Source: Eledone cirrhosa (Eukaryota). From it: a stretch of 64,000 bases of DNA. Both the position numbers and the translations under genes were made by a program. Positions 1 through 64,000 of this stretch are shown here, piece after piece (position 1 is the stretch's first letter; every line of letters begins with the position of its first letter). The DNA lies in NCBI GenBank assembly GCA_964016885.1, contig OZ024766.1, positions 16,368,001 through 16,432,000 on the forward strand, written 5' to 3'. Under the pieces are notes generated by a model. It was given only the letters and a program-made list of their open reading frames with translations, was not told where the DNA came from and made no database searches.

Positions 1-3000
1 TTCTTCCAATGTCAGTTGTCATACAGGTGTCCATGGCTGTCTTATTTAACTGGCTACTCCAGTGACTGCTCCTTCTAGTCTCTTCTTCCAATGTCAGTTG
101 TCATACAGGTGTCCATGGCTGTCTTATTTAACTGGCTACTCCAGTGACTGCTCCTTCTAGTCCCTTCTTCCAATGTCAGTTGTCATACAGGTGTCCATGG
201 CTGACTTATTTAACTGGCTACTCCAGTGACTGCTCCTTCTCGTCTCTCTTTCCAATATCGGTTGTCTTACAGGAGTCCATGGCTGTCTTATTTAACTGGC
301 TACTCCAGTGACTGCTCCTGCTAGTCTCTTCTTCCAATGTCAGCTGACATACAGGTGTCCATGGCTGTCTTATTTAACTGGCTACTCCAGTGATTTCCCC
401 CTCTAGTCTCTTCTTCCAATGTCAGTTGTCATACAGGAGTCCATGGCTGTCTTATTTAAGTGGCTACTCCAGTGACTGCTCCTTCTAGTCTCTTCATCCA
501 ACGTCAGTTGTCATACAGGAGTCCATGGCTGTCTTATTTAACTGGCTGCTCCATTGACTGCTCCTTCTAGTCCCTTCTTCCAATGTCAGTTGTCATACAG
601 GTGTCAATGGCTGTTATTTAACTGGCTACTCCAGTGACTGCTCCTTCTAGTCCCTTCTTCCAATGTCAGTTGTCATACAGGTGTCCAAAGCTGTCTTATT
701 TAACTGGCTACTCCAGTGACTGCCCCTTCTAGTCCCTTCTTCCAATGTCAGTTGTCATACAGGAGTCCATGGCTGTCTTATTTAACTGGCAACTCCAGTG
801 ACTGCCCCTTCTAGTCCCTTCTTCCAATGTCAGTTGTCATACAGGAGTCCATGGCTGTCTTATTTAACTGGCTACTCCAGTGACTGCCCCTTCTAGTCTC
901 ATCTTCCAATGTCAGTTGTCATACAGGTGTCCATGGCTGTCTTATTTAACTGGCTACTCCAGTGACTGCTCCTTCTAGTCTCTTCTTCCAATGTCAGTTG
1001 TCATACAGGTGTCCATGGCTGTCTTATTTAACTGGCTACTCCAGTGACTGCTCCTTCTAGTCCCTTCTTCCAATGTCAGTTGTCATACAGGTGTCCATGG
1101 CTGACTTATTTAACTGGCTACTCCAGTGACTGCTCCTTCTCGTCTCTCTTTCCAATATCGGTTGTCTTACAGGAGTCCATGGCTGTCTTATTTAACTGGC
1201 TACTCCTGTGACTGCTCCTGCTAGTCTCTTCTTCCAATGTCAGCTGACATACAGGTGTCCATGGCTGTCTTATTTAACTGGCTACTCCAGTGACTGCTCC
1301 CTCTAGTCCTTTCTTCCAATGTCAGTTGTCATACAGGAGTCCAAGACTGTCTTATTTAACTGGCTACTCCAGTGACTGCTCCTTCTAGTCCATTCTACCA
1401 ATGTCAGTTGTCATACAGGTGTCCATGGCTGTCTTATTTAACTGGCTACTCCAGTGACTGCTCCTTCTAGTCTCTTCTTCCAATATCAGTTGTCATACTG
1501 GAGTCCATGGCTGTCTTATTTAACTGGCCTACTCCAGTGACTGCTCCTTCTAGTCCCTTCTTCCAATGTTAGTTGTCATACAGGAGTCCATGGCCGTCTT
1601 ATTTAACTGGCTACTTCAGTGACTGCTCCTTCTAGTCCCTTCTTCCAATGTTAGTTGTCATACAGGAGTCCATGGCTGTCTTATTTAACTGGCTACTCCA
1701 GTGACTACTCCTTCTAGTCCCTTCTTCCAATGTTAGTTGTCATACAGGTGTCCATGGCTGTCTTATTTAGCTGGCTACTCCAGTGACTGCTGCTTCTAGT
1801 CTCTTCTTCCAATGTCAGTTGTCATACAGGTGTCCATGACTGTCTTATTTAACTGGCTACTCCAGTGACTGCTCCTTCTAGTCTCTTCTTCCAATGTCAG
1901 TTATCATACAGGTGTCCATGGCTGACTTATTTAACTGGCTACTCCAGTGATTGCCCCTTCTAGTCTCTTCTTCCAATGTCAGTTGTCATACAGGTGTCCA
2001 TGGCTGTCTTATTTAACTGGCTACTCAAGTGACTGCTCCTTCTAGTCCATTCTTCCAATGTCAGTTGTCATACAGGAGTCCATGGTTGTCTTATTTAACT
2101 GGCTACTCAAGTGACTGCTCCTTCTAGTCCATTCTTCCAATGTCAGTTGTCATACAGGTGTCCATGGCTGTCTTATTTAACTGGCTACTCCAGTGACTGC
2201 TCCTTCTAGTCTCTTCTTCCAATGTCAGTTATCATACAGGTGTCCATGGCTGACTTATTTAACTGGCTACTCCAGTGATTGCCCCTTCTAGTCTCTTCTT
2301 CCAATGTCAGTTGTCATACAGGTGTCCATGGCTGTCTTATTTAACTGGCTACTCAAGTGACTGCTTCTTCTAGTCCATTCTTCCAATGACAGTTGTCATA
2401 CAGGAGTCCATGGTTGTCTTATTTAACTGGCTACTCCAGTGACTGCTCCTTCTAGTCCATTCTTCCAATGTCAGTTGTCATACAGGTGTCCATGGCTGTC
2501 TTATTTAAGTGGCTACTCCAGTGACTGCTCCTTCTAGTCTCTTCTACCAATGTCAATTGTCATACAGGAGTCCATAACTGTCTTATTTAACTGGCTACTC
2601 CAGTGACTGCTCCTTCTAGTCTCTTCTTCCAATGTCAGTTGTCATACAGGTGTCCATGGCTGTCTTGTTTAACTGGCTACTCCAGTGACTGCTCCTTCTA
2701 GTCTCTTCTTCCAATGTCAGTTGTCATACAGGTGTCCATGGCTGTCTTATTTAACTGGCTACTCAAGTGACTGCTCCTTCTAGTCCATTCTTCCAATGTC
2801 AGTTGTCATACAGGAGTCCATGGTTGTCTTATTTAACTGGCTACTCAAGTGAGTGCTCCTTCTAGTCCATTCTTCCAATGTCAGTTGTCATACAGGTGTC
2901 CATGGCTGTCTTATTTAAGTGGCTACTCCAGTGACTGCTCCTTCTAGTCTCTTCTACCAATGTCAATTGTCATACAGGAGTCCATAACTGTCTTATTTAA

Positions 3001-6000
3001 CTGGCTACTCAAGTGACTGCTCCTTCTAGTCCATTCTTCCAATGTCAGTTGTCATACAGGAGTCCATGGCTGCCTTATTTAACTGGCCACTCCAGTGACT
3101 GCTCCTTCTAGTCTCTTCTTCCAATGACAGTTGTCATACAGGTGTCCATGGCTGTCTTATTTAACTGGCTACTCCAGTGACTGCTCCTTCTAGTCTCTTC
3201 TTCCGATGTCAGCTGACATACAGGTGTCCATGGCTGTCTTATTTAACTGGCTACTCCAGTGACTGCTCCTGCTAGTCTCTTCTTCCAATGTCAGCTGACA
3301 TACAGGTGTCCATGGCTGTCTTATTTAACTGGCTACTCCAGTGACTGCTCCCTCTAGTCCCTTCTTCCAATGTCAGTTGTCATACAGGAGTCCAAGACTG
3401 TCTTATTTAACTGGCTACTCCAGTGACTGCTCCTTCTAGTCCATTCTTCCAATGTCAGTTGTCATACAGGTGTCCATGGCTGTCTTGTTTAACTGGCTAC
3501 TCCAGTGACTGCTCCTTCTAGTCCCTTCTTCCAATGTCAGTTGTCATACAGGTGTCCATGGCTGTCTTGTTTAACTGGCTACTCCAGTGACTGCTCCTTC
3601 TAGTCCATTCTTCCAATGTCAGTTGTCATACAGGTGTCCATGGCTGTCTTGTTTAACTGGCTACTCCAGTGACTGCTCCTTCTAGTCCCTTCTTCTAATG
3701 TCAGTTGTCATACAGGTGTCCATGGCTGTCTTGTTTAACTGGCTACTCCAGTGACTGCTCCTTCTAGTCCCTTCTTCCAATGTCAGTTGTCATACAGGTG
3801 TCCATGGCTGTCTTGTTTAACTGGCTACTCCAGTGACTGCTCCTTCTAGTCTCTTCTTCCAATGTCAGTTGTCATACAGGAGTCCAAGACTGTCTTATTT
3901 AACTGGCTACTCCAGTGACTGCTCCTTCTAGTCCCTTCTTCCAATGTCAGTTGTCATACAGGTGTCCATGGCTGTCTTATTTAACTGGCTACTCCAAGAC
4001 TGCTCCTTCTAGTCTCTTCTTCCAATGTCAGTTGTCATACAGGTGTCCATGGCTGTCTTATTTAACTGGCTACTCCAGTGACTGCTCCTTCTAGTCCCTT
4101 CTTCCAATGTCAGTTGTCATACAGGTGTCCATGGCTGTCTTATTTAACTGGCTACTCCAGTGACTGCCCCTTCTAGTCCCTTCTTCCAATGTCAGTTGTC
4201 ATACAGGTGTCCATGGGTGACTTATTTAACTGGCTACTCCAGTGATTTCCCCCTCTAGTCTCTTCTTCCAATGTCAGTTGTCATACAGGAGTCCATGACT
4301 GTCTTATTTAAGTGGCTACTCCAGTGACTGCTCCTTCTAGTCTCTTCATCCAATGTCAGTTGTCATACAGGAGTCCATGGCTGTCTTATTTAACTGGCTG
4401 CTCCATTGACTGCTCCTTCTAGTCCCTTCTTCCAATGTCAGTTGTCATACAGGTGTCAATGGCTGTTATTTAACTGGCTACTCCAGTGACTGCTCCTTCT
4501 AGTCCCTTCTTCCAATGTCAGTTGTCATACAGGTGTCCAAAGCTGTCTTATTTAACTGGCTACTCCAGTGACTGCCCCTTCTAGTCCCTTCTTCCAATGT
4601 CAGTTGTCATACAGGAGTCCATGGCTGTCTTATTTAACTGGCTACTCCAGTGACTGCCCCTTCTAGTCCCTTCTTCCAATGTCAGTTGTCATACAGGAGT
4701 CCATGGCTGTCTTATTTAACTGGCTACTCCAGTTACTGCCCCTTCTAGTCTCTTCTTCCAATGTCAGTTGTCATACAGGTGTCCATGGCTGTCTTATTTA
4801 ACTGGCTACTCCAGTGACTGCTCCTTCTAGTCTCTTCTTCCAATGTCAGTTGTCATACAGGTGTCCATGGCTGTCTTATTTAACTGGCTACTCCAGTGAC
4901 TGCTCCTTCTAGTCCCTTCTTCCAATGTCAGTTGTCATACAGGTGTCCATGGCTGACTTATTTAACTGGCTACTCCAGTGACTGCTCCTTCTCGTCTCTC
5001 TTTCCAATATCGGTTGTCTTACAGGAGTCCATGGCTGTCTTATTTAACTGGCTACTCCAGTGACTGCTCCTGCTAGTCTCTTCTTCCAATGTCAGCTGAC
5101 ATACAGGTGTCCATGGCTGTCTTATTTAACTGGCTACTCCAGTGATTTCCCCCTCTAGTCTCTTCTTCCAATGTCAGTTGTCATACAGGAGTCCATGGCT
5201 GTCTTATTTAAGTGGCTACTCCAGTGACTGCTCCTTCTAGTCTCTTCATCCAACGTCAGTTGTCATACAGGAGTCCATGGCTGTCTTATTTAACTGGCTG
5301 CTCCATTGACTGCTCCTTCTAGTCCCTTCTTCCAATGTCAGTTGTCATACAGGTGTCAATGGCTGTTATTTAACTGGCTACTCTAGTGACTGCTCCTTCT
5401 AGTCCCTTCTTCCAATGTCAGTTGTCATACAGGTGTCCAAAGCTGTCTTATTTAACTGGCTACTCCAGTGACTGCCCCTTCTAGTCCCTTCTTCCAATGT
5501 CAGTTGTCATACAGGAGTCCATGGCTGTCTTATTTAACTGGCAACTCCAGTGACTGCCCCTTCTAGTCCCTTCTTCCAATGTCAGTTGTCATACAGGAGA
5601 CCATGGCTGTCTTATTTAACTGGCTACTCCAGTGACTGCCCCTTCTAGTCTCATCTTCCAATGTCAGTTGTCATACAGGTGTCCATGGCTGTCTTATTTA
5701 ACTGGCTACTCCAGTGACTGCTGCTTCTAGTCTCTTCTTCCAATGTCAGTTGTCATACAGGTGTCCATGACTGTCTTATTTAACTGGCTACTCCAGTGAC
5801 TGCTCCTTCTAGTCTCTTCTTCCAATGTCAGTTATCATACAGGTGTCCATGGCTGACTTATTTAACTGGCTACTCCAGTGATTGCCCCTTCTAGTCTCTT
5901 CTTCCAATGTCAGTTGTCATACAGGTGTCCATGGCTGTCTTGTTTAACTGGCTACTCCAGTGACTGCTCCTTCTAGTCTCTTCTTCCAATGTCAGTTGTC

Positions 6001-9000
6001 ATACAGGTGTCCATGGCTGTCTTATTTAACTGGCTACTCAAGTGAGTGCTCCTTCTAGTCCATTCTTCCAATGTCAGTTGTCATACAGGTGTCCATGGCT
6101 GTCTTATTTAAGTGGCTACTCCAGTGACTGCTCCTTCTAGTCTCTTCTACCAATGTCAATTGTCATACAGGAGTCCATAACTGTCTTATTTAACTGGCTA
6201 CTCCAGTGACTGCTCCTTCTAGTCTCTTCTTCCAATGTCAGTTGTCATACAGGTGTCCATGGCTGTCTTGTTTAACTGGCTACTCCAGTGACTGCTCCTT
6301 CTAGTCTCTTCTTCCAATGTCAGTTGTCATACAGGTGTCCATGGCTGTCTTATTTAACTGGCTACTCAAGTGACTGCTCCTTCTAGTCCATTCTTCCAAT
6401 GTCAGTTGTCATACAGGAGTCCATGGTTGTCTTATTTAACTGGCTACTCAAGTGAGTGCTCCTTCTAGTCCATTCTTCCAATGTCAGTTGTCATACAGGT
6501 GTCCATGGCTGTCTTATTTAAGTGGCTACTCCAGTGACTGCTCCTTCTAGTCTCTTCTACCAATGTCAATTGTCATACAGGAGTCCATAACTGTCTTATT
6601 TAACTGGCTACTCCAGTGACTGCTCCTTCTAGTCTCTTCTTCCGATGTCAGCTGACATACAGGTGTCCATGGCTGTCTTATTTAACTGGCTACTCCAGTG
6701 ACTGCTCCTGCTAGTCTCTTCTTCCAATGTCAGCTGACATACAGGTGTCCATGGCTGTCTTATTTAACTGGCTACTCCAGTGACTGCTCCCTCTAGTCCC
6801 TTCTTCCAATGTCAGTTGTCATACAGGAGTCCAAGACTGTCTTATTTAACTGGCTACTCCAGTGACTGCTCCTTCTAGTCCATTCTTCCAATGTCAGTTG
6901 TCATACAGGTGTCCATGGCTGTCTTGTTTAACTGGCTACTCCAGTGACTGCTCCTTCTAGTCCCTTCTTCCAATGTCAGTTGTCATACAGGTGTCCATGG
7001 CTGTCTTGTTTAACTGGCTACTCCAGTGACTGCTTCTTCTAGTCCCTTCTTCCAATGTCAGTTGTCATACGGGAGTCCAAGACTGTCTTATTTAACTGGC
7101 TACTCCAGTGACTGCTCCTTCTAGTCCCTTCTTCCAATGTCAGTTGTCATACAGGTGTCCATGGCTGTCTTGTTTAACTGGATACTCCAGTGACTGCTCC
7201 TTCTAGTCTCTTCTTCCAATGTCAGTTGTCAGACAGGTGTCCATGGCTGTCTTATTTAACTGGCTACTCCAGTGACTGCTCCTTCTAGTCCCTTCTTCCA
7301 ATGTCAGTTGTCATACAGGTGTCCATGGCTGTCTTATTTAACTGGCTACTCCAAGACTGCTCCTTCTAGTCTCTTCTTCCATTGTCAGTTGTCATACAGG
7401 TGTCCATGGCTGTCTTATTTAACTGGCTACTCCAGTGACTGCTCCTTCTAGTCCCTTCTTCCAATGTCAGTTGTCATACAGGTGTCCATGGCTGTCTTGT
7501 TTAACTGGATACTCCAGTGACTGCTCCTTCTAGTCTCTTCTTCCAATGTCAGTTGTCATACAGGAGTCCATGGCTGTCTTATTTAACTGGCTACTCCAGT
7601 GACTGCTCCTTCTAGTCTCTTCTTCCAATGTCAGCTGTCATACAGGTGTCCATGGCTGTCTTATTTAGCTGGCTACTCCAGTGACTGCTCCTTCTAGTCT
7701 CTTCTTCCAATGTCAGTTGTCATACAGGTGTCCATGGCTGTCTTATTTAACTGGCTACTCAAGTGACTGCTCCTTCTAGTCTCTTCTTCCAATGTCAGTT
7801 GTCATACAGGTGTCCATGGCTGACTTATTTAACTGGCTACTCCAGTGACTGCTCCTTCTAATCTCTTCTTCCAATGTCAGTTGTCATACAGGAGTCCATG
7901 GCTGTCTTATTTAACTGACTACTCCAGTGACTGCACCTTCTAGTCCCTTCTTCCAATGTCAGTTGTCATACAGGTGTCCATGGCTGTCTTGTTTAACTGG
8001 CTACTCCAGTGACTGCTCCTTCTAGTCCCTTCTTCCAATGTCGGTTGTCATACAGGTGTCCATGGCTGTCTTATTTAACTGGCTACTCCAGTGACTGCCC
8101 CTTCTAGTCCCTTCTTCCAATGTCAGTTGTCATACAGGTGTCCATGGCTGACTTATTTAACTGGCTACTCCAGTGATTTCCCCCTCTAGTCTCTTCTTCC
8201 AATGTCAGTTGTCATACAGGAGTCCATGACTGTCTTATTTAAGTGGCTACTCCAGTGACTGCTCCTTCTAGTCTCTTCATCCAACGTCAGTTGTCATACA
8301 GGAGTCCATGGCTGTCTTATTTAACTGGCTGCTCCATTGACTGCTCCTTCTAGTCCCTTCTTCCAATGTCAGTTGTCATACAGGTGTCAATGGCTGTTAT
8401 TTAACTGGCTACTCCAGTGACTGCTCTTTCTAGTCCCTTCTTCCAATGTCAGTTGTCATACAGGTGTCCAAAGCTGTCTTATTTAACTGGCTACTCCAGT
8501 GACTGCCCCTTCTAGTCCCTTCTTCCAATGTCAGTTGTCATACAGGAGTCCATGGCTGTCTTATTTAACTGGCTACTCCAGTGACTGCCCCTTCTAGTCC
8601 CTTCTTCCAATGTCAGTTGTCATACAGGAGTCCATGGCTGTCTTATTTAACTGGCTACTCCAGTTACTGCCCCTTCTAGTCTCTTCTTCCAATGTCAGTT
8701 GTCATACAGGTGTCCATGGCTGTCTTATTTAACTGGCTACTCCAGTGACTGCTCCTTCTAGTCCCTTCTTCCAATGTCAGTTGTCATACAGGTGTCCATG
8801 GCTGACTTATTTAACTGGCTACTCCAGTGACTGCTCCTTCTCGTCTCTCTTTCCAATATCGGTTGTCTTACAGGAGTCCATGGCTGTCTTATTTAACTGG
8901 CTACTCCAGTGACTGCTCCTGCTAGTCTCTTCTTCCAATGTCAGCTGACATACAGGTGTCCATGGCTGTCTTATTTAACTGGCTACTCCAGTGACTGCCC

Positions 9001-12000
9001 CTTCTAGTCCCTTCTTCCAATGTCAGTTGTCATACAGGAGTCCATGGCTGTCTTATTTAACTGGCTACTCCAATGACTGCCCCTTCTAGTCTCTTCTTCC
9101 AATGTCAGTTGTCATACTGGTGTCCATGGCTGTCTTATTTAACTGGCTACTCCAGTGACTGCTCCTTCTAGTCTCTTCTTCCAATTTCAGTTGTCATACA
9201 GGTGTCCATGGCTGTCTTATTTAACTGGCTACTCCAGTGACTGCTCCTTCTAGTCCCTTCTTCCAATGACAGTTGTCATACAGGTGTCCATGGCTGACTT
9301 ATTTAACTGGCTACTCCAGTGACTGCTCCTTCTCGTCTCTCTTTCCAATATCGGTTGTCTTACAGGAGTCCATGGCTGTCTTATTTAACTGGCTACTCCA
9401 GTGACTGCTCCTGCTAGTCTCTTCTTCCAATGTCAGCTGACATACAGGTGTCCATGGCTGTCTTATTTAACTGGCTACTCCAGTGATTTCCCCCTCTAGT
9501 CTCTTCTTCCAATGTCAGTTGTCATACAGGAGTCCATGACTGTCTTATTTAAGTGGCTACTCCAGTGACTTCTCCTTCTAGTCTCTTCATCCAACGTCAG
9601 TTGTCATACAGGAGTCCATGGCTGTCTTATTTAACTGGCTGCTCCATTGACTGCTCCTTCTAGTCCCTTCTTCCAATGTCAGTTGTCATACAGGTGTCAA
9701 TGGCTGTTATTTAACTGGCTACTCCAGTGACTGCTCCTTCTAGTCCCTTCTTCCAATGTCAGTTGTCATACAGGTGTCCAAAGCTGTCTTATTTAACTGG
9801 CTACTCCAGTGACTGCCCCTTCTAGTCCCTTCTTCCAATGTCAGTTGTCATACAGGAGTCCATGGCTGTCTTATTTAACTGGCAACTCCAGTGACTGCCC
9901 CTTCTAGTCCCTTCTTCCAATGTCAGTTGTCATACAGGAGTCCATGGCTGTCTTCTTTAACTGGCTACTCCAGTGACTGCCCCTTCTAGTCTCATCTTCC
10001 AATGTCAGTTGTCATACAGGTGTCCATGGCTGTCTTATTTAACTGGCTACTCCAGTGACTGCTCCTTCTAGTCTCTTCTTCCAATGTCAGTTGTCATACA
10101 GGTGTCCATGGCTGTCTTATTTAACTGGCTACTCCAGTGACTGCTCCTTCTAGTCCCTTCTTCCAATGTCAGTTGTCATACAGGTGTCCATGGCTGACTT
10201 ATTTAACTGGCTACTCCAGTGACTGCTCCTTCTCGTCTCTCTTTCCAATATCGGTTGTCTTACAGGAGTCCATGGCTGTCTTATTTAACTGGCTACTCCA
10301 GTGACTGCTCCTGCTAGTCTCTTCTTCCAATGTCAGTTGTCATACAGGTGTCCATGGCTGTCTTGTTTAACTGGCTACTCCAGTGACTGCTCCTTCTAGT
10401 CCCTTCTTCCAATGTCAGTTGTCATACAGGTGTCCATGGCTGTCTTATTTAACTGGCTACTCCAGTGACTGCCCCTTCTAGTCCCTTCTTCCAATGTCAG
10501 TTGTCATACAGGTGTCCATGGCTGACTTATTTAACTGGCTACTCCAGTGATTTCCCCCTCTAGTCTCTTCTTCCAATGTCAGTTGTCATACAGGAGTCCA
10601 TGACTGTCTTATTTAAGTGGCTGCTCCATTGACTGCTCCTTCTAGTCCCTTCTTCCAATGTCAGTTGTCATACAGGTGTCCATGGCTGACTTATTTAACT
10701 GGCTACTCCAGTGACTGCTCCTTCTCGTCTCTCTTTCCAATATCGGTTGTCTTACAGGAGTCCATGGCTGTCTTATTTAACTGGCTACTCCAGTGACTGC
10801 TCCTGCTAGTCTCTTCTTCCAATGTCAGCTGACATACAGGTGTCCATGGCTGTCTTATTTAACTGGCTACTCCAGTGACTGCCCCTTCTAGTCCCTTCTT
10901 CCAATGTCAGTTGTCATACAGGAGTCCATGGCTGTCTTATTTAACTGGCTACTCCAATGACTGCCCCTTCTAGTCTCTTCTTCCAATGTCAGTTGTCATA
11001 CTGGTGTCCATGGCTGTCTTATTTAACTGGCTACTCCAGTGACTGCTCCTTCTAGTCTCTTCTTCCAATTTCAGTTGTCATACAGGTGTCCATGGCTGTC
11101 TTATTTAACTGGCTACTCCAGTGACTGCTCCTTCTAGTCCCTTCTTCCAATGACAGTTGTCATACAGGTGTCCATGGCTGACTTATTTAACTGGCTACTC
11201 CAGTGACTGCTCCTGCTAGTCTCTTCTTCCAATGTCAGTTGTCATACAGGTGTCCATGGCTGTCTTGTTTAACTGGCTACTCCAGTGACTGCTCCTTCTA
11301 GTCCCTTCTTCCAATGTCAGTTGTCATACAGGTGTCCATGGCTGTCTTATTTAACTGGCTACTCCAGTGACTGCCCCTTCTAGTCCCTTCTTCCAATGTC
11401 AGTTGTCATACAGGTGTCCATGGCTGACTTATTTAACTGGCTACTCCAGTGATTTCCCCCTCTAGTCTCTTCTTCCAATGTCAGTTGTCATACAGGAGTC
11501 CATGACTGTCTTATTTAAGTGGCTACTCCAGTGACTGCTCCTTCTAGTCTCTTCATCCAACGTCAGTTGTCATACAGGAGTCCATGGCTGTCTTATTTAA
11601 CTGGCTGCTCCATTGACTGCTCCTTCTAGTCCCTTCTTCCAATGTCAGTTGTCATACAGGTGTCAATGGCTGTTATTTAACTGGCTACTCCAGTGACTGC
11701 TCCTTCTAGTCCCTTCTTCCAATGTCAGTTGTCATACAGGTGTCCAAAGCTGTCTTATTTAACTGGCTACTCCAGTGACTGCCCCTTCTAGTCCCTTCTT
11801 CCAATGTCAGTTGTCATACAGGAGTCCATGGCTGTCTTATTTAACTGGCAACTCCAGTGACTGCCCCTTCTAGTCCCTTCTTCCAATGTCAGTTGTCATA
11901 CAGGAGTCCATGGCTGTCTTATTTAACTGGCTACTCCAGTGACTGCCCCTTCTAGTCTCTTCTTCCAATGTCAGTTGTCATACAGGTGTCCATGGCTGTC

Positions 12001-15000
12001 TTATTTAACTGGCTACTCCAGTGACTGCTCCTTCTAGTCTCTTCTTCCAATGTCAGTTGTCATACAGGTGTCCATGGCTGTCTTATTTAACTGGCTACTC
12101 CAGTGACTGCTCCTTCTAGTCCCTTCTTCCAATGTCAGTTGTCATACAGGTGTCCATGGCTGACTTATTTAACTGGCTACTCCAGTGACTGCTCCTTCTC
12201 GTCTCTCTTTCCAATATCGGTTGTCTTACAGGAGTCCATGGCTGTCTTATTTAACTGGCTACTCCAGTGACTGCTCCTGCTAGTCTCTTCTTCCAATGTC
12301 AGCTGACATACAGGTGTCCATGGCTGTCTTATTTAACTGGCTACTCCAGTGACTGCCCCTTCTAGTCCCTTCTTCCAATGTCAGTTGTCATACAGGAGTC
12401 CATGGCTGTCTTATTTAACTGGCTACTCCAGTGACTGCCCCTTCTAGTCCCTTCTTCCAATGTCAGTTGTCATACAGGAGTCCATGGCTGTCTTATTTAA
12501 CTGGCTACTCCAGTGACTGCTCCTTCTAGTCCCTTCTTCCAATGTCAGTTGTCATACAGGTGTCCATGGCTGACTTATTTAACTGGCTACTCCAGTGACT
12601 GCTCCTTCTCGTCTCTCTTTCCAATATCGGTTGTCTTACAGGAGTCCATGGCTGTCTTATTTAACTGGCTACTCCAGTGACTGCTCCTGCTAGTCTCTTC
12701 TTCCAATGTCAGCTGACATACAGGTGTCCATGGCTGTCTTATTTAACTGGCTACTCCAGTGACTGCTCCCTCTAGTCCCTTCTTCCAATGTCAGTGGTCA
12801 TACAGGAGTCCAAGACTGTCTTATTTAACTGGCTACTCCAGTGACTGCTCCTTCTAGTCCATTCTACCAATGTCAGTTGTCATACAGGTGTCCATGGCTG
12901 TCTTATTTAACTGGCTACTCCAGTGACTGCTCCTTCTAGTCTCTTCTTCCAATATCAGTTGTCATACTGGAGTCCATGGCTGTCTTATTTAACTGGCCTA
13001 CTCCAGTGACTGCTCCTTCTAGTCCCTTCTTCCAATGTTAGTTGTCATACAGTAGTCCATGGCCGTCTTATTTAACTGGCTACTTCAGTGACTGCTCCTT
13101 CTAGTCCCTTCTTCCAATGTTAGTTGTCATACAGGAGTCCATGGCTGTCTTATTTAACTGGCTACTCCAGTGACTGCTCCTTCTAGTCCCTTCTTCCAAT
13201 GTTAGTTGTCATACAGGTGTCCATGGCTGTCTTATTTAGCTGGCTACTCCAGTGACTGCTGCTTCTAGTCTCTTCTTCCAATGTCAGTTGTCATACAGGT
13301 GTCCATGACTGTCTTATTTAACTGGCTACTCCAGTGACTGCTCCTTCTAGTCTCTTCTTCCAATGTCAGTTATCATACAGGTGTCCATGGCTGACTTATT
13401 TAACTGGCTACTCCAGTGATTGCCCCTTCTAGTCTCTTCTTCCAATGTCAGTTGTGATACAGGTGTCCATGGCTGTCTTATTTAACTGGCTACTCAAGTG
13501 ACTGCTCCTTCTAGTCCATTCTTCCAATGTCAGTTGTCATACAGGAGTCCATGGTTGTCTTATTTAACTGGCTACTCAAGTGACTGCTCCTTCTAGTCCA
13601 TTCTTCCAATGTCAGTTGTCATACAGGTGTCCATGGCTGTCTTATTTAACTGGCTACTCCAGTGACTGCTCCTTCTAGTCTCTTCTACCAATGTCAATTG
13701 TCATACAGGAGTCCATAACTGTCTTATTTAACTGGCTACTCCAGTGACTGCTCCTTCTAGTCTCTTCTTCCAATGTCAGTTGTCATACAGGTGTCCATGG
13801 CTGTCTTGTTTAACTGGCTACTCCAGTGACTGCTCCTTCTAGTCTCTTCTTCCAATGTCAGTTGTCATACAGGTGTCCATGGCTGTCTTATTTAACTGGC
13901 TACTCAAGTGACTGCTCCTTCTAGTCCATTCTTCCAATGTCAGTTGTCATACAGGAGTCCATGGTTGTCTTATTTAACTGGCTACTCAAGTGAGTGCTCC
14001 TTCTAGTCCATTCTTCCAATGTCAGTTGTCATACAGGTGTCCATGGCTGTCTTATTTAAGTGGCTACTCCAGTGACTGCTCCTTCTAGTCTCTTCTACCA
14101 ATGTCAATTGTCATACAGGAGTCCATAACTGTCTTATTTAACTGGCTACTCTAGTGACTGCTCCTTCTAGTCTCTTCTTCCGATGTCAGCTGACATACAG
14201 GTGTCCAAGACTGTCTTATTTAACTGGCTACTCCAGTGACTGCCCCTTCTAGTCTCTTCTTCCAATGTCAGTTGTCATACAGGTGTCCATGGCTGTCTTA
14301 TTTAACTGGCTACTCCAGTGACTGCTCCTTCTAGTCTCTTCTTCCAATGTCAGTTGTCATACAGGTGTCCATGGCTGACTTATTTAACTGGCTACTCCAG
14401 TGATTTCCCCTTCTAGTCTCTTCTTCCAATGTCAGTTGTCATACAGGAGTCCATGACTGACTTATTTAAGTGGCTACTCCAGTGACTGCTCCTTCTAGTC
14501 TCTTCATCCAACGTCAGTTGTCATACAGGAGTCCATGGCTGTCTTATTTAACTGGCTGCTCCATTGACTGCTCCTTCTAGTCCCTTCTTCCAATGTCAGT
14601 TGTCATACAGGTGTCCATGGCTGTCTTATTTAATTGGCTACTCCAGTGACTGCTCCTTCTAATCCCTTCTTCCAATGTCAGTTGTCATACAGGTGTCAAT
14701 GGCTGTTATTTAACTGGCTACTCCAGTGACTGCCCCTTCTAGTCCCTTCTTCCAATGTCAGTTGTCATACAGGAGTCCATGGCTGTCTTATTTAACTGGC
14801 TACTCCAGTGACTGCTCCTTCTAGTCTCTTCTTCCAATATCAGTTGTTATACACGAGTCCACGGCTCTCTTATTTAACTGGCTACTCCAGTGACTGCTCC
14901 TTCTCGTCTCTCTTTCCAATATCAGTTGTCTTACAGGAGTCCATGGCTGTCTTATTTAACTGGCTACTCCAGTGACTGCTCCTGCTAGTCTCTTCTTCCA

Positions 15001-16237
15001 ATGTCAGCTGACATACAGGTGTCCATGGCTGTCTTATTTAACTGGCTACTCCAGTGACTGCTCCTTCTAGTCCATTCTTCCAATGTCAGTTGCCATACAG
15101 GTGTCCATGGCTGTCTTATTTAACTGGCTACTCCAGTGACTGCTCCTTCTAGTCCATTCTACCAATGTCAGTTGTCATACAGGTGTCCATGGCTGTCTTA
15201 TTTAACTGGCTACTCCAGTGACTGCTCCTTCTAGTCCATTCTTCCAATGTCAGTTGTCATACAGGTGTCCATGGCTGTCTTATTTAACTGGCCTACTCCA
15301 GTGACTGCTCCTTCTAGTCCCTTCTTCCAATGTTAGTTGTCATACAGGTGTCCATGGCCGTCTTATTTAACTGGCTACTTCAGTGACTGCTCCTTCTAGT
15401 CCCTTCTTCCAATGTTAGTTGTCATACAGGAGTCCATGGCTGTCTTATTTAACTGGCTACTCCAGTGACTACTCCTTCTAGTCCCTTCTTCCAATGTTAG
15501 TTGTCATACAGGTGTCCATGGCTGTCTTATTTAGCTGGCTACTCCAGTGACTGCTGCTTCTAGTCTCTTCTTCCAATGTCAGTTGTCATACAGGTGTCCA
15601 TGGCTGTCTTATTTAACTGGCTACTCCAGTGACTGCTCCTTCTAGTCTCTTCTTCCAATGTCAGTTATCATACAGGTGTCCATGGCTGACTTATTTAACT
15701 GGCTACTCCAGTGATTGCCCCTTCTAGTCTCTTCTTCCAATGTCAGTTGTCATACAGGTGTCCATGGCTGTCTTATTTAACTGGCTACTCAAGTGACTGC
15801 TCCTTCTAGTCCATTCTTCCAATGTCAGTTGTCATACAGGAGTCCATGGCTGTCTTATTTAACTGGCTACTCAAGTGACTGCTCCTTCTAGTCCATTCTT
15901 CCAATGTCAGTTGTCATACAGGAGTCCATAGTTGTCTTATTTAACTGGCTACTCAAGTGACTGCTCCTTCTAGTCCATTCTTCCAATGTCAGTTGTCATA
16001 CAGGAGTCCATGGCTGTCTTATTTAACTGGCTACTCCAGTGACTGCTCCTTTTAGTCCCTTCTTCCAATGTCAGTTGTCATACAGGTGTCCATGGCTGTC
16101 TTATTTAACTGGCTACTCCAGTGACTGCTCCCTCTAGTCCCTTCTTCCAATGTCAGTTGTCATACAGGAGTCCATGGCTGTCTTATTTTACTGGCTACTC
16201 CAGTGACTGCCCCTTCTTGTCTCTTCTTCCAATGTCA
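1..16237 (-). repeat. 82-bp tandem satellite (~198 copies, truncated by window start), derived from Helitron coding sequence
   Basis: Unit ttcttccaatgtcagttgtcatacaggtgtccatggctgtcttatttaactggctactccagtgactgctccttctagtctc recurs at 1, 83, etc. and runs directly into the Helitron fragment at ~16240. Confidence 0.98.
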
Positions 16238-16655
16238 ATTGCCATGCAGGAGTTGATGTTCTTTAAATGCTTCTTGATATGTGCTGCACTCTTCCTCCAA
16301 ATCACCTGAGATCCTCAAATGTCGTTGGTCCTTGAACAATAAGCAGAAGTGGCTGTAAATAAAAACTCTCTCTGTTGTTGGGGTGGTCATTGTAAACATG
16401 CCCAATAGCATCACTTGCCTTGTCTTCATCACCTTCCACTAAATGACCCTGCTTCCTTTGATTCCAAGTCTTACAATTGGTCCAGGTGTAGTATTTTGGG
16501 ATGTCAGCATATAGGAGGGATCGAAGAAATTCTTTATTCTGGCAGAGTTTCAAAAAAGCAGTTAGAGTAGTGTCAGGTGGTGCTGGTGTCAACTGATGAG
16601 CAGTGGTTTCAGTGAAGTACACACTCTGTCCATTTTCTATATGTATAGAGATAAG
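16200..16655 (-). mobile_element. Helitron Rep/helicase pseudogene fragment (module copy 1)
   Basis: Translation HIENGQSVYF..PPDTTLTAF..LLYADIPKYYTW..WNQRKQG..IGHVY..ESFYLQPLL..GPTTFEDLR then (frameshift) TYQEAF..LL matches the conserved Helitron region between the Rep and PIF1 domains. Confidence 0.88.
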
Positions 16656-18871: not shown

Positions 18872-18939
18872 CAGTGAAGAATTTGGAGTGTAGTCTGGTG
18901 TCCACCAGGGCTCTGTTCTTAGCCCTCACTTAGTTATTA

Positions 18940-19535: not shown

Positions 19536-20072
19536 GTGGAGGAAGATTTCTTGTAACTAATTAAAAACTAAAATAATTTGATTTTTCAATAAAAAGTTTC
19601 CAGGGTTTATAGATGTAAAATTTCCACTGTTAAATCTATCTCTGCTTCTTAAGTATTCTCTATTATCTCATACTGTTTCTTTTTCATTTCAGAATATCAG
19701 ATGACATTGGGATAAATTATTATTTTCAATCTTGGATACATCACCTCTATTTATCATCATTTGAAGATTAAAACTTTTTAAACAGAACTTATGTAACACT
19801 GTTTATAAAAATCAATCAGAATTACTGTGATATATTTCCTCAGAACTGAGTTTAAAGACAAAATTCCTTTTCTTCACTGTGTGGTATATATATGAGAGAT
19901 ATATTTTGTATTTTAACTCAACTTCAATGACAAAGAAGTTTGCATCATCTTCAGGTATTAACTGAGATCATAATTGAGGGAAATATAACAGAAGAAATAT
20001 TTTTTAGGAATATAATATAAAAAATAGTAAAGAATAACATCTGTAAATTCTGCCAAGGGAAGAAGAATTATT

Positions 20073-21770
20073 ATGGAAAATAAATTGAGTGAAAAGAAGA
20101 TTAAATGTGAAACAATGTCTAAAGATATGGCTATTACAGAAGAGATGTCAAAGGATAGAGGAGAGAAGCCATATCGCTGTGATGTGTGTGGTAAATCATT
20201 CTCTGTTAGTAGTAAATTAACTACTCACATACGTACCCATACAGGAGAGAAGCCATATAACTGTGATATCTGTGGTAAATCATTCGCTCAAAGTAGTATA
20301 TTAACTAACCACATGCATATACATACAGGTGAGAAACCATATCGCTGTGATATCTGTGGTAAATCATTCTCTCTAAGTAGTATATTAACTTGTCACATAC
20401 GTACCCATACAGGTGACAAACCATATCACTGTGATATCTGTGGTAAATCATTCTCTGTTAGTAGTAAATTAACTAGTCACATACGTACCCATACAGGAGA
20501 GAAGCCATATAACTGTGATATCTGTGGTAAATCATTCTCTCAAAGTAGTATATTAACTAACCACATGCATATACATACAGGTGAGAAACCATATCGCTGT
20601 GATATCTGTGGTAAATCATTCTCTCTAAGTAGTATATTAACTTGTCACATACGTACCCATACAGGTGACAAACCATATCACTGTGATATCTGTGGTAAAT
20701 CATTCTCTGAAAGTGGTACCTTAACTAGCCACAAACGTACCCATAGAGGAGAGAAGCCATATCACTGTGATATCTGTGGTAAATCATTCTCTCGAAGTAG
20801 TTATTTAACTACACACAAACATATACATACAGGAGAGAAGCCATATCACTGTGATATCTGTGGTAAATCATTCTTTGTTAATAGTAAATTAACTAGACAC
20901 AAACGTATACATACAGGAGAGAAGCCATATCACTGTGATATCTGTGGTAAATCCTTCAATAAAAGTATTCACTTAACTACACACATGCGTATACATACAG
21001 GTGAGAAACCATATCACTGTGATATCTGTGGTAAATCATTCTCTTTTAGTCGTACATTAACTACTCACAAATGTATACAGACAGGAGAGAAGCCATATCA
21101 CTGTGATATCTGTGGTAAATCATTCTTTGTTAATAGTAATTTAACTAAACACAAATGTATACATACAGGAGAGAAGCCTTATCACTGTGATATCTGTGGT
21201 AAATCATTCTCTCAGAGTAGTGCCTTAACTAGACACAAACGTATACATACAGGAGAGAGGCCATATGACTGTGATATCTGTGGTAAATCATTCTCTCAAT
21301 GTGGTCACTTAACTAGCCACAAACATATACATACAGGAGAGAAGCCATATCACTGTGATATCTGTGGTAAATCATTCTCTCGAAGTGGTCACTTAACTAG
21401 CCACAAACGTATACATACAGTAGAGAAGCCATATCACTGTGATATCTGTGGTATATCATTCTCTCAATGTAGTCAAATAACTAGCCACAAACGTACCCAT
21501 ACAGGAGAGAAGCCTTATCACTGTGATATCTGTGGTAAATCATTCTCTCAAAGTGGTACCTTAACTAGCCACATACATACTCATACAGGAGACCAGCCTT
21601 ATCACTGTGATATCTGTGGTAGATCATTCTCTCAAAGTAGTCACTTAACTAAACACTTACGTATCCATACAGGTGAGAAGCCATATCGCTGTGATATCTG
21701 TGGTAAATCATTCTCTCAATTAAGTAGTTTAACTAGACACAAATATACCCATACCGGTAAGAAACCATAA
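20073..21770 (+). CDS. Poly-C2H2 zinc-finger protein, 565 aa, 19 fingers (finger 11 has H>Q)
   Basis: Open ORF of CxxC-12-HxxxH repeats with TGEKPY linkers after a ~33 aa leader. Confidence 0.95.
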
Positions 21771-33251: not shown

Positions 33252-34865
33252 TTATGGTTTCTTACCTGTATGGGTATATTTGTGTTTAGTTAAATTACTT
33301 AATTGAGAGAATGATTTACCACAGATATCACAGTGATGTGGCTTCTCACCTGTATGGATACGTAAGTGTTGAGTTAAGGGACTACTTTGAGAGAATGATT
33401 TACCACAGATATCACAGCGATATGGTTTGTCTCCTGTATGTATACGTTTGTGACTAATTAAATTACTACAAGAAGAGAATGATTTACCACAGATATCACA
33501 GTGATATGGCTTGTCACCTGTATGGGTACGTATGTGACGAGTTAATATACTACTTAGAGAGAATGATTTACCACAGATATCACAGCGATATGGTTTTTCA
33601 CCTGTATGTATACGCATGTGTGTAGTTAAGTTACTACTTTTATTGAATGATATACCACAGATATCACAGTGATATGGCTTCTCACCTGTATGTATACGTT
33701 TGTGTCTAGTTAATTTACTATTAACAAAGAATGATTTACCACAGATATCACAGTGATATGGTTTCTCTCTTGTATGTATATGTTTGTGTGTAGGTAAATG
33801 ACTACTTCGAGAGAATGATTTGCCACAGATATCACAGTGATATGGCTTGTCACCTGTATGGGTATGTTTGTGGCTAGTTAAGGTACCACTTTCAGAGAAT
33901 GATTTACCACAGATATCACAGTTATATGGCTTCTCTCTTGTATGTATATGTTTGTGTGTAGTTAAATGACTACTTAGAGAGAATGATTTACCACAGATAT
34001 CACAGTGATATGGTTTCTCACCTGTATGTATACGCATGTGTTTAGTTAAGTTACTAATTTGAGAGAATGATTTACCACAGATATCACAGTGATTTGGCTT
34101 CTCTCCTGTATGTATATGTTTGTGTGTAGTTAAGGTACCACTTAGAGAGAATGATTTACCACAGATATCACAGTGATATGGCTTCTCTCCTGTATGTATA
34201 TGTTTGTGTGTAGTTAAATGACTACTTCGAGAGAATGATTTACCACAGATATCACAGTGGTATGGCTTGTCACCTGTATGGGTACGTTTGTGGCTAGTTA
34301 AGGTACCACTTTCAGAGAATGATATACCACAGATATCACAGTGATATGGCTTCTCTCCTGTATGTATATGTTTGTGTGTAGTTAAGGTACTACTTTGAGA
34401 AAATGATTTACCACAGATATCACAGTGATTCGGCTTCTCTCCTGTATGTATATGTTTGTGTGTAGTTAAGGTACAACTTTGAGAGAATGATTTACCACAG
34501 ATATCACAGTGATATGGCTTGTCTCCTGTATGTGTACGTTTGTGGCTACTTAAGTGACCACTTCCAGAGAATGATTTACCACAGATATCACAGCGATATG
34601 GTTTCTCACCTGTATGTATACGTTTGTGGCTAGTTAATATACTACTTTGAGAGAATGATTTACCACATATATCACAGATATATGGCTTCTCTCCTGTATG
34701 GGTACGTTTGTGTCTAGTTAATTTACTACTAACAGAGAATGATTTACCACAGACATCACAGTGATATGGCTTCTCTCCTCTATTGTTTGACATCTCTTCT
34801 GGAATAGCCATATCTTTAGACATTGTTTCACATTTAATCTTCTTTTCACTCAATTTATTTTCCAT
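33252..34865 (-). CDS. Poly-C2H2 zinc-finger protein, 537 aa, 18 fingers
   Basis: Intact ORF with nearly the same leader and terminal finger as copy 1. Confidence 0.95.
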
Positions 34866-35108
34866 AATAATTCTTCTTCCCTTGGCAGAATTTACAGATG
34901 TTATTCTTTAATATTTTTCATATTATATTCTTAAAAAATATTTCTTCTGTTATATTTCCCTCAATTATGATCTCAGTTAATACCTGAAGATGATGCAAAC
35001 TTCTTTGTCATTGAAGTTGAGTTAAAATACAAAATATATCTCTCATATATATACCACACAGTGAAGAAAAGGAATTTTGTCTTTAAACTCAGTTCTGAGG
35101 AAATATAT

Positions 35109-36110: not shown

Positions 36111-36182
36111 ACGATAATAACTAAGTGAGGGCTAAGAACAGAGCCCTGGAGGACACCAGACTACACTCCAAATTATTCACTA

Positions 36183-37840: not shown

Positions 37841-38315
37841 ATAATTGTTTCTATTTTTTGGCACAAGGCCAGCAATTACTGGTACTATATTTAATCAACC
37901 CCGTAATAACTGTTTCTACTTTAGGCACAAGGCCAGCAATTACCTCAATGTATTACTGGTACTTTATTTCATCAACCGTGTAATAACTGTTTCTACTTTA
38001 GGCACAAGGCCAGCAATTACTCCAGTGTATTACTGGTACTTTATTTTATCTACCCCATAATAATTGTTTCTACTTTAGGCACAAGGCCAGCAATTACTCC
38101 AGTGTATTACTGGTACTTTATTTTATCTACCCCATAATAATTGTTTCTACTTTAGGCACAAGGCCAGCAATTACCCCAGTGTATGGCTGGTACTTTATTT
38201 TATCGACCCCGTAATAATTGTTTCTACTTTAGGCACAAGGCCAGCAATTACCCTAGTACATTACTGGTACTTTATAATACCGACCCCGTAGGGATGAAAG
38301 GCAAAGCGAACCTCT
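37841..38315 (-). repeat. SINE-tail tandem repeat (~63 bp, ~7 copies)
   Basis: aattgtttctactttaggcacaaggccagcaatta..tggtactttatttt repeated. Confidence 0.88.
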
Positions 38316-38344: not shown

Positions 38345-40322
38345 CTCTATACATATAGAAAATGGACAGAGTGTGTACTTCACTGAAACCACTGCTTATC
38401 AGTTGACACCAGCACCACCTGACACTACTCTAACTGCTTTTTTGGAACACTGCCAGAATAAAGAATTTCTTCGATCCCTCCTATATGCTGACATCCCAAA
38501 ATACTACAACTGACATTAGAAGAAGGGACTAGAAGGAGCAGTCACTGGAGTAGCCAGTTAAATAAGACAGCCATGGACACCTGTATGACAACTGACATTG
38601 GAAGAAGAGACTAGAAGGAGCAGTCACTGGAGTAGCCAGTTAAATAAGACAGCCATGGACTCCTGTATGACAACTGACATTGGAAGAAGGGACTAGAGGG
38701 AGCAGTCACTGCAGTAGCCAGTTAAATAAGACAGCCATGGACACCTGTATGACAACTGACATTGGAAGAAGAGACTAGAAGGGGCAGTCACTGGAGTAGC
38801 CAGTGAAATAAGACAGCCATGGACTCCTGTATGACAATTGACATTGGAAGAAGAGACTAGAAGGGGCAGTCACTGGAGTAGCCAGTGAAATAAGTCAGCC
38901 ATGGACACCTGTATGACAACTGACATTGGAAGAAGGGACTAGAAGGGGCAATCACTGGAGTAGCCAGTTAAATAAGACAGCCATGGACACCTGTATAACA
39001 ACTGACATTGGAAGAAGGGACTAGAAGGAACAGTCACTGGAGTAGCCAGTTAAATAAGACAGCCATGGACTCCTGTATGACAACTGACATTGGAAGAAGA
39101 GACTAGAAGGGGCAGTCACTGGAGTAGCCAGTTAAATAAGACAGCCATGGACTCCTGTATGACAACTGACATTGGAAGAAGAGACTAGAAGGAGCAGTCA
39201 CTGGAGTAGCCAGTTAAATAAGACAGCCATGGACACCTGTATGACAACTGACATTGGAAGAAGAAGAGACTAGAAGGAGCAGTCACTGGAGTAGCCAGTT
39301 AAATAAGACAGCCATGGACACCTGTATAACAACTGACATTGGAAGAAGGGACTAGAAGGAACAGTCACTGGAGTAGCCAGTTCAATAAGACAGCCATGGA
39401 CTCCTGTATGACAACTGAGATTGGAAGAAGAGACTAGAAGGAGCAGTCACTGGAGTAGCCAGTTAAATAAGACAGCCATGGACACCTGTATGACAACTGA
39501 CATTGGAAGAAGAGACTAGAAGGAGCAGTCACTGGAGTAGCCAGTTAAATAAGACAGCCATGGACACCTGTATAACAACTGACATTGGAAGAAGGGACTA
39601 GAAGGAACAGTCACTGGAGTAGCCAGTTAAATAAGACAGCCATGGACTCCTGTATGACAACTGAGATTGGAAGAAGAGACTAGAAGGAGCAGTCACTGGA
39701 GTAGCCAATTAAATAAGACAGCCATGGACTCCTGTATGACAACTGACATTCGAAGGAGAGACTAGGAGCAGTCACTGGAGTGGCCAATTAAATAAGACAG
39801 CCATGGACACCTGTATGACAACTGACATTGGAAGAAGGGACTAAAAGGAGCAGTCACTGTAGTAGCCAGTTAAATAAGACAGCCATGGACTCCTGTATGA
39901 CAACTGAGATTGGAAGAATGGACTAGAAGTAGCGGTCACTGGAGTAGCCAGTTAAATAAGACAGTTGTTTGCTACTATACTCACAGCATGTGGAATAGAT
40001 CTCATCTACCCTGGCAGGAGCACAAAAACAATATGTCAGACGACTATCTACACCTAGCCCAAAGACGTTATAGCAATATTTATGTGGAATCTACCTCCAG
40101 GATTTACCATCAACCTCTGTGCAACCTGTCCCATTGAATTCCAGCAATGAATAGCAATGCGGGATGCCAGAGCCAGAAGAAATTGAGGTAACACAATCAG
40201 TTTTTCAGGAGACAAACCATGATATTGAAGTGTTGCGTAAGTTTGTGGATGAAAATAAACCTTGACTGGTGGATGACCAGAAATATGCCTACCACAACAT
40301 CATGAAAAACATTCAACATGAC
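38345..40322 (+). mobile_element. Helitron Rep/helicase fragment (copy 2) interrupted by the 82-bp array
   Basis: HIENGQSVYF..DIPKYY, a ~270-bp deletion relative to copy 3, the array, then IRQLFATILTAC..WQEHKNNMSDDYL..LVDDQKYAY. Confidence 0.85.
38508..39964 (+). repeat. 82-bp satellite, ~18 copies
   Basis: Reverse complement of the unit at 1-16237. Confidence 0.97.
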
Positions 40323-41717
40323 AGCACCCAGCACTCACTGTAAATGAGGTTGGCATTAGGAAGGGCGTCCAGCTGTAGAAATCAAGCCAGAATCAGTTCC
40401 CGTCCCACCCTTGCAAGCAGGGAAAAAGCGGACGAGAAATGAAATGATGATGAATGATGATGTCCCTCCCATTTTTTCAATAGGGTCACTTTAACGAATC
40501 AAAAGATAAATAGCAGAAAAACAGGCCCTAAAATATATTTTCCGTGCTATTTCTAACTTCACCTTTTCTCTATATAGAGAGAGAGAGCAAGAGGACAATT
40601 TGTCATGTCTTCATTACATTTATTGAGCAGTGAAGCACGTTTTGCTATCGATCAGCTCAAGGTTTGATCTGTATTGATCTAGCCTGACTCTGGAATCAAA
40701 AGCTTGTCAGACTTCTGTTGTGGTAATAATGTTACAATCCCTAGATATCATCATCATCGATTAATGTCTATCTTCCTTGCTAGCATGGGTTGGACGTGTT
40801 TGTCGTATTTAGAAGCAAGTTAGGTCGGGTGACCGTGTCTCGCTCATATATATATATATATATAGCAGGCGCTGCAAAAAAAATCCGGAAACTAACCATG
40901 CATCCCAGACATGGCTTCATATGACCCAGGCGGGCAGGTGCAGCAAACAAACGTTGCATACCTGACCCTGTGCGTATCGACAATGGTAGGGTTGTAACCA
41001 TATCTTTTAACAGATAAAAAAATTTTCCGGGAAAGACTGCCCTAACACCAGCTAGAGTTACCTCCCTTGACCTACTGCAACATCAAAACACGCTTTTTTG
41101 CGTAGAATGAACTCTGACGTGAACTTATCTCTAAAAACACATTCTGGGCCATGTAAGGAACACTTTTTAGTTATTTATACCCTTGAGAAGCCCATCCAGG
41201 TGAAACGTACATCTTTTAACGGTCTGTTCTGCTATATTTTACTTTTCCACGTATATATATATTTATATATATATATATCAACTAGAAATTGATTGACATA
41301 TAAATAAACATATGAAACAATCACAGGGGATAATTTGTAAAAGTGTGTAAGCACACATAGCTAGGTAAGTAACTAAATAAATTTAACTAGAACTTCAAAA
41401 ATAGATACCTTAGAAAATGATTAATCTTCCTCGTATATATTCCATTAAAGAAATATATTTCACCAATTAATCGATTGGTAAACGACAGTAGCCAGATCTT
41501 GGATTCTCAACAAGGAAGAAGTCCAACCATCTGTGTTTACGCATCAAGTTCAAATCAGCGACTGACCAGTAACACGTGCTGTATCTACTAAAAATACACA
41601 CATCATACCAGCTTCGTCCCAGTTGCGTGAATAGGGTTATTCACAACTAGAAACAGCAGTCACGTCCTTTCAACAGAGTTATCTCTACAATTAAGGGGCC
41701 GTATTTATATATATATA

Positions 41718-43232: not shown

Positions 43233-44258
43233 TTATGGTTTCTTACCTGTATGGGTATATTTGTGTTTAGTTAAATTACTTAATTGAGAGAATGATTTAC
43301 CACAGATATCACAGTGATGTGGCTTCTCTCCTGTATGGATACGTAAGTGTTGAGTTAAGGGACTACTTTGAGAGAATGATTTACCACAGATATCACAGCG
43401 ATATGGCTTCTCCCCTGTATGGATACGTAAGTGCTCAGTTAAATAACTTCTTCGAGAGAATGATTTACCACAGATATCACAGTGATATGGTTTGTCTCCT
43501 GTATGAGTACGTTTGTGTCTAGTTAAGGTACTACTATCAGAGAATGATTTACTACAGATATCACAGTGATATGGCTTGTCTCCTGTATGTATACGTTTGT
43601 GGCTAGTTAAGGTACTACTATCAGAGAATGATTTACCACAGATATCACAGTGATATGGCTTCTCTCCTGTATGGGTACGTTTGTGGCTAGTTAAGTGACC
43701 ACTTTGAGAGAATGATTTACCACAGATATCACAGTGATATGGCTTCTCACCTGTATGTATACTTTTGTGTCTAGTTAAATTACTATTAACAAAGAATGAT
43801 TTACCACAGATATCACAGTGATATGGCTTCTCTCCTGAATGGGTACGTTTGTGGCTAGTTAAACTAATATTATTAAAGAATGATTTACCACAGATATCAC
43901 AGTTATAAGGCTTCTCTCCTGTATGAGTACGTATGTGAGAAGTTAAATTACTACTAAAAGACAATGATTTACCACAGATATCACAGTGATAAGGCTTGTC
44001 TCCTGTATGTGTACGTTTGTGGCTAGTTAAAGTACTACTTACAGAGAATGATTTACCACAGATATCACAGTGATATGGTTTGTCACCTGTATGGGTACGT
44101 ATGTGACAAATTAATATACGACTTAGAGAGAATGATTTACCACAGACATCACAGTGATATGGCTTCTCTCCTCTATCCTTTGACATCTCTTCTGTAATAG
44201 CCATATCTTTAGACATTGTTTCACATTTAATCTTCTTTTCACTCAATTTATTTTCCAT
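43233..44258 (-). CDS. Poly-C2H2 zinc-finger protein, 341 aa, 11 fingers
   Basis: Intact ORF with the same leader and terminal finger as the other copies. Confidence 0.93.

Positions 44259-63000: not shown

Positions 63001-64000
<1,000 letters not shown>

Follow-up and report, generated by a model that had tools for sequence, protein, structure and literature searches.

Organization of the locus

The analysed window, a stretch of 64,000 nucleotides, was compared with itself after masking of the arrays, and a repeated module was found that consists of a C2H2 zinc-finger (ZNF) ORF, a 115-bp array, a 77-bp array, a Helitron fragment with an 82-bp array, and a spacer. The window's three copies have whole modules in common; the head-to-tail order holds for modules 2 and 3 and the beginning of a fourth, and module 1 is inverted. 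The modules differ by 1.7-4.4% substitutions (flanks, 2-4%). The ZNF ORFs are located at 20031..21770 (plus strand, 579 aa; inverted module 1), 33252..34907 (minus strand, 551 aa; module 2), 43233..44300 (minus strand, 355 aa; module 3) and 63001..63999 (minus strand; next module, cut by the window end). These paralogous ORFs vary in length by whole 84-bp finger repeats, and coding arrays therefore change size as well. The non-finger N-terminus of the module 3 protein is identical at 10 of 13 residues to that of one Octopus bimaculoides ZNF protein, and the other named matches in the protein search were from many animals. The similarity to this protein, together with the style of the repeats, makes an octopus the probable host.

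Tandem repeats were called with TRF, and the arrays were then cut into monomers; both procedures agree on three 82-bp arrays of about 17, about 18 and at least 198 copies, the numbers given in the preliminary description. Array 1 (1..16259) is on the minus strand, opposite to arrays 2 and 3, and is open at the window start; TRF placed it at 1-16250 (period 82, 198.3 copies), and monomer cutting gave 198 full units plus a partial one with the end at 16259, a length taken from the assembly only. With head-to-tail monomers over at least 16.2 kb, 93% matches, and a mean distance of 4% from the consensus, array 1 is a satellite by structure. The span formerly assigned to this satellite (1..16655) is correct for the array part and too long at its end: the array stops at 16259, and the ~380 bp beyond are Helitron flank. 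This flank (16260..16636, minus strand) is the Helitron RepHel fragment left of array 1, from the Rep-PIF1 linker, and next to it the diverged first (proximal) unit (16178..16259, minus strand) occupies the place collinear with the ORF.

Array 2 (38506..39964, plus strand; TRF period 82, 17.8 copies) contains 17 full units and one partial unit. A RepHel left-flank remnant (38358..38504, plus strand) is joined to it by a deletion with a 3-bp microhomology, which removed ~230 bp of the left flank and the first unit, and the RepHel right flank follows at 39965..40323 (plus strand). Array 3 (TRF period 82, 57009-58393, 16.9 copies) was cut into 17 units on the plus strand, namely a diverged first unit at 57003..57084 and 16 internal units at 57085..58393. 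Its left RepHel flank (56626..57002, plus strand) is truncated at 56626 and has a stop and a frameshift near 56958-56975, and its right flank (58394..58751, plus strand; two frameshifts and three stops) reaches the first ~20 residues of the PIF1 domain. The unit translation and the junctions of array 3 quoted earlier were checked in the sequence and are as stated; because the stretch HQLLHGNRHW is the diverged first unit of array 3 itself, this array lies between TYQEAFKE and LFATILTAC. The right ends of the Helitron fragment at 40323 and 58752 join a piece of a 49-bp repeat family.

Non-coding arrays with units of 49-117 bp total 30.6 kb (48% of the window). Beside the Helitron fragment, 77-bp arrays are present in module 2 (37841..38290, ~6 units) and in modules 1 and 3 (16705-16934 and 56329-56558, 3 units each). 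The 77-bp unit is also found once each in a dispersed element at 18680-18875, 36179-36374 and 45456-45651 in the same modules; judged from its sequence, this element looks SINE-like, and the second array by the Helitron fragment would therefore be mobile-element-derived, too. The 115-bp AT-rich array is longest in module 3 (45969..51373, 47 units); module 1 has 5.9 units (17685-18361), and the short array of module 2 (36694-37091) has a few. Since module 3 combines the longest 115-bp array with a short 82-bp array, the arrays expand independently of each other. A search for the origin of the 115-bp unit found none. Two 78-bp AT-rich arrays, at 26351-29434 (39.6 units) and, in opposite orientation, at 25513-25826 (4 units), lie at the centre of the module 1/2 inversion, and the 78-bp unit had no match among the other units in the window. 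Around the same centre, module spacer without the Helitron fragment is present at 24032-24684 and 30048-31402, joined to 49-bp repeats.

The 115-bp array is split by an LTR retrotransposon at ~51377-55470 and starts again at 55481. The repeats at the two ends of the retrotransposon are 88% similar over 132 bp, and its gag with a zinc knuckle, aspartyl protease, RT, DUF7047 and integrase are found in several separate frames. LINE-like reverse-transcriptase fragments are located at 60131-61542 (RVT_1, 60131-60733), and 18870-19001 and 31430-31840 contain related pieces. The module spacers include two palindromic MITE-like elements (41701-41930 and 42231-42353), with paralogous places at 23197-23319, 23641-23792, 31798-31944, 32252-32374, 59558-59776 and 61855-61977.

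Origin of the 82-bp unit

The 115-residue ORF beside array 1 had 1176 representative homologs at E up to 0.001, and four longer proteins matched it at 54-56% identity. When 10 homologs were searched with Pfam, Helitron_like_N or PIF1 was found in 8; the full Rep-PIF1-2B layout (Helitron_like_N, PIF1, Pif1_2B) was present in P0001, P0003, P0013 and P0039, and P0001 and P0003 both carry PF14214 and PF05970. No Helitron Pfam domain was detected on the two flank ORFs, Pfam not covering the linker; Rfam gave 0 matches, and the search for exact 27-nt matches in metagenome contigs gave 0. The unit comprises 27 codons plus one base of the Rep-PIF1 linker; in P0001, the Rep domain spans residues 392-572 and PIF1 residues 1034-1248, with the unit in the linker between them.

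Plain tblastn of the collapsed module kept the frame of the flank and skipped that of the unit because of the neighbouring frameshifts, and a frameshift-aware alignment was therefore used. With the array collapsed, the check proposed in the preliminary description, 56625-58751 aligned with P0001 770-1053 collinearly through the unit (118 of 265 residues identical), and the collapsed module 3 aligned with P0003 1016-1298 (118 of 268 identical). For both proteins the best score was obtained with a single unit: without a unit, with the first unit, with an internal unit and with two units, the scores were 367, 441, 433 and 403 for P0001 and 356, 424, 420 and 385 for P0003. A lone internal unit scored 7.0 bits in the predicted frame against a segment HMM (built only from the 85 of 154 homologs long enough past the ORF match), a score exceeded by 1 of 1000 shuffles (best of six frames). 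In tblastn with the raw module, the last unit and the right flank were aligned to P0003 1146-1181. The opposite case, in which intact Helitrons carry this array as a standard repeat, was not encountered: the homologs run through the segment as one continuous protein, and intact Helitrons are therefore without the array. The monomer is thus homologous to RepHel, and the parental fragment adjoins the array, as in a satellite derived from a transposase ORF. The HMM score and the peak at one unit bear out the earlier proposal of an in-register derivation, and on these sequence comparisons the 82-bp unit almost certainly originates from Helitron RepHel coding sequence.

State of the source fragment

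The collapsed fragment covers the linker only and contains 3 frameshifts and 5 stops, and is thus not an intact autonomous RepHel ORF. Modules 1 and 3 share the stop and the frameshift to the left of the array, and modules 2 and 3 share two of the three stops in the right flank. An in-frame TAA is present in 227 of the 230 internal units (197/197 in array 1, 14/17 in array 2 and 16/16 in array 3). The first unit of array 3 also has it, and that of array 1 does not. The W-to-R spacing is 16 in the unit and 17 in all 49 homologs in which it was measurable (the motif being present in 56 of the 85 homolog segments). The stop and the one missing codon would have preceded the amplification, being present in array 3's first unit and in almost all the others; the missing codon could also be a trait of the parent family. 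The source copy was likely already dead before amplification. Regardless of the stops, a step of 82 bases shifts the reading frame, and the satellite is therefore non-coding.

Contigs of sequencing runs (4 of 11 runs examined) were matched to a probe of the left flank, the first unit and 41 bases of the second unit. In run X1, eleven contigs from other copies diverge from the window at 56626 and continue the Helitron ORF leftward, where their letters translate as an upstream Helitron motif that is also found in P0005; the RepHel fragment is truncated at 56626, because these contigs continue the ORF to the left. A scan for a hairpin plus CTRR on both strands found no Helitron 3' end motif at the fragment ends; its two hits were both within array units.

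Age and growth of the arrays

Between arrays 1 and 3 the first unit differs at 2/82 positions, like the flanks, and both first units are at least 8/82 from every internal unit; seven off-consensus differences, absent or rare within the arrays, are common to both. At three codons the array consensus (G, D and L) fits the homologs (G in 48, D in 31 and L in 28 of 56), and the first unit has Q, G and Q. Edge units of satellites generally escape homogenisation, and so did the first unit as the edge of its array. The second units of arrays 1 and 3 are also 2/82 apart, as expected for orthologous units. Because the first units are alike between arrays 1 and 3 yet distant from the internal units, the seed is older than the module split; this agrees with the order of events proposed earlier, as do three sites that are polymorphic in all three arrays. 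One two-site haplotype is common to arrays 1 and 3. These shared polymorphisms mean either that the ancestral module already had several unit types or that conversion moved the types.

Array 1 comprises 86 unit types among 197 units, 146 of which have an identical twin, and consists largely of re-copied blocks: 156 of 198 units belong to 5- to 15-unit blocks that recur with 0-1.5% divergence and at many offsets, and the best block score was 30 (at most 10.5 in 200 order shuffles). This divergence is below that of the modules, which confirms growth of array 1 after the module split. The growth claimed earlier, more than tenfold, is not borne out: by the copy-parse, 72 of the 197 units are non-copied (at least 173 in shuffles), corresponding to ~2.7-fold growth in the visible part. 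Unequal crossover likely drove this growth, a step that we infer.

Proposed explanation and alternatives

Taken together, we consider the following explanation probable. An 82-bp stretch of the RepHel linker would have been duplicated in tandem within a broken, terminus-less fragment, the first duplication presumably being made by replication or repair (no in-register microhomology remains at the seed junction). The arrayed fragment would then have been carried along passively as the whole ZNF module was duplicated, and the array size in each module would rise and fall by unequal exchange, with unequal crossover or gene conversion as the putative driver. Other units, including a second mobile-element-derived array, have also expanded within these modules, which suggests that amplification is favoured by the locus and not by the Helitron ORF. 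Most likely, the 82-bp repeat is a neutral passenger in a region prone to expansion of 49-117 bp repeats of several origins, and its derivation from an ORF appears incidental.

A variant of this explanation fixes the direction of change: the ancestral module had a long array, arrays 2 and 3 contracted, and long arrays are usual in the cluster. It is a real possibility, though we would not put it at even chances. The truncation of array 2 is demonstrated, and the unit divergence within arrays, ~6% (5.8-6.8%), exceeds the flank divergence of 2-4%, with few haplotypes common between arrays; this diversity could be due to a raised mutation rate or, alternatively, to a large ancestral array. In run X1, contig depths summed to 86,000-153,000 across the unit, 1,400-3,800 across the flank and 460-810 where flank and unit meet, which hints at a high-copy 82-bp family; against this use of the depth, it is not a copy number, since short overlapping contigs inflate repeats, and X1 accounts for 0.49 of the sampled words. 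Long diverged contigs of X1 had depths of 3-10. The recent growth of array 1, being real, also speaks against simple contraction. Among the other runs, X5 and X8 gave data too thin for a reading: X5 covered parts of the flank and not the unit, and X8 had one 112-bp contig going back 82 without flank. In X4, unit and flank were covered to a similar depth, and a loose end resembles the right flank by eye, a pattern compatible with a single-unit copy as far as one contig goes.

The preliminary description instead regarded the arrays of 17-18 units as preserved early stages, with array 1 alone expanded more than tenfold. The young block duplications of array 1, the 2/82 distances of the first two units between arrays 1 and 3, and the lack of any copied block of three or more units in array 3 would suit this reading, but the order of the units does not. 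Between arrays, collinearity never extends beyond 2 units, a value equalled in 291-300 of 300 shuffles, and apart from the first two units of arrays 1 and 3 no positional orthology is left. With the three commonest polymorphic sites omitted, array 1 contained 1 of array 3's 26 rare allele pairs and none of array 2's 21, and arrays 2 and 3 had none in common; sharing of single-site alleles (24 alleles) was set aside as weak, array 1 having 78 variant alleles. Moreover, array 2 is without its proximal end and holds a copied 4-unit block, and array 1 retains the 72 non-copied units. An Fst-like differentiation between the arrays was slight, 0.017-0.064 (reached by 16, 1 and 8 of 300 permutations). 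Preserved early stages are thus improbable, and the short arrays are reshuffled sisters, not snapshots.

Spread by transposition, with the array as the central repeat of a non-autonomous Helitron of the DINE/HINE type, is very unlikely. Short satellite arrays are frequent in Helitrons, including those of a bivalve, according to the portions of PMC7492417 and PMC10048060 consulted; at this locus, however, the unit is RepHel sequence between RepHel flanks, the fragment is cut within the ORF at both ends, the two hairpin-plus-CTRR hits are confined to array units, and the similarity between copies spans the neighbouring repeats and ZNF genes far beyond the fragment.

Tandem Helitrons have a characteristic junction, with a TC start, a hairpin and a CTAG end joined head to tail. 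The antisense unit might mimic such a mini-Helitron (TC start, small hairpin, CTAG end, head to tail) and be amplified by RepHel in trans through rolling circle replication. If this were true, a transposon gene would have turned into a substrate of its own transposase, as a satellite of thousands of units across an octopus ZNF cluster. The CTAG/TC joint is present in 215 of 230 units with a 5-bp stem upstream, and both features were found in only 11 of 5000 shuffles; but the pattern was defined after the sequence had been seen, conservation of the joint is ordinary (17 of 82 windows are as good), the stem is broken in 64 of 230 units, and each of the five observed array ends falls in ORF register or at the deletion, not at TC or CTAG. 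We therefore give this idea scarcely any credence. An assembly artefact as the cause of the 16-kb length is about as implausible: blocks of 5-6 units at 0% divergence do exist and the length comes from the assembly, but the array has 86 distinct unit types among 197 with a longest exact repeat of 501 bp, its copied blocks overlap at many different offsets, and the unit is very deep in run X1.

Relation to known satellites and significance

Satellites from transposase ORFs are known already, and the present repeat is a variant from RepHel. The closest case is CficCl-61-40 of Chenopodium, which is derived from the tnp2 domain of the CACTA element Jozin (PMC7320549, in the part of the article consulted). 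In both, a deletion derivative supplied the transposase coding sequence from which the monomer arose, and its parental fragment adjoins the array as the start monomer. CficCl-61-40 is a plant CACTA repeat with a ~40-bp unit and proposed repeated de novo birth, whereas ours is an 82-bp unit of an animal Helitron, both ORF flanks are in register, and one seed was spread by segmental duplication. The consulted sections of a review (PMC9659126) list further satellites from transposable-element ORFs, namely PROsat (LINE-1 ORF2), HinfI (CR1 ORF2) and E3900 (gag), in which coding parts likewise feed tandem repeats; unlike the present case, these are retroelements. The same sections name non-coding parts of transposable elements as the commoner source of satellites, and the one Helitron row in the consulted part of the review's table refers to DINE central tandem repeats and not to RepHel.

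Satellite-like repeats physically linked to Helitron or Helentron sequence have been described as DINE-TR1, Cg_HINE and Heli2Xen minisatellites in oyster, Drosophila and Xenopus (PMC7492417, PMC10048060, PMC12001565, PMC6947457 and PMC12692304, each as far as the text consulted extends). Those arrays are within non-autonomous elements or at the ends of an autonomous one and are mobile by transposition; the unit here, in contrast, is RepHel sequence and was moved with a host gene module. In the portions consulted of the literature on Helitrons and satellites, no satellite derived from a RepHel ORF was found, and Repbase or Dfam entries, supplements or subscription papers may hold the family. 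The ORF origin, called unusual in the preliminary description, would be so with respect to RepHel, and not with respect to other transposon classes, where transposase-ORF satellites are known. The literature on cephalopod satellites yielded no study of an 82-bp repeat, the part of PMC10547256 consulted holds nothing on this repeat, and octopus ZNF clusters as such have been described (PMC9795677, in the excerpt consulted).

In our view, the repeat is a genuine and exceptionally clear example of a satellite carved out of a dead RepHel gene, and it reveals neither a new mechanism nor a new function. For most satellites the birth sequence is lost; here, conserved homologs establish what the single-copy ancestor was like, where the breakpoints lie and in which direction the changes went.

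Tandem repeats of 70-90 bp reportedly flank octopus C2H2-ZNF genes, as described by Albertin et al. in 2015, and the 77-, 78- and 82-bp arrays of the present locus fit in unit size and zinc-finger context. The finding may name the origin of one 70-90 bp repeat of octopus zinc-finger clusters, and the paralogous modules, 2-4% apart, provide a clock of array turnover and therefore a tidy model in which satellite expansion, contraction and edge effects can be measured.
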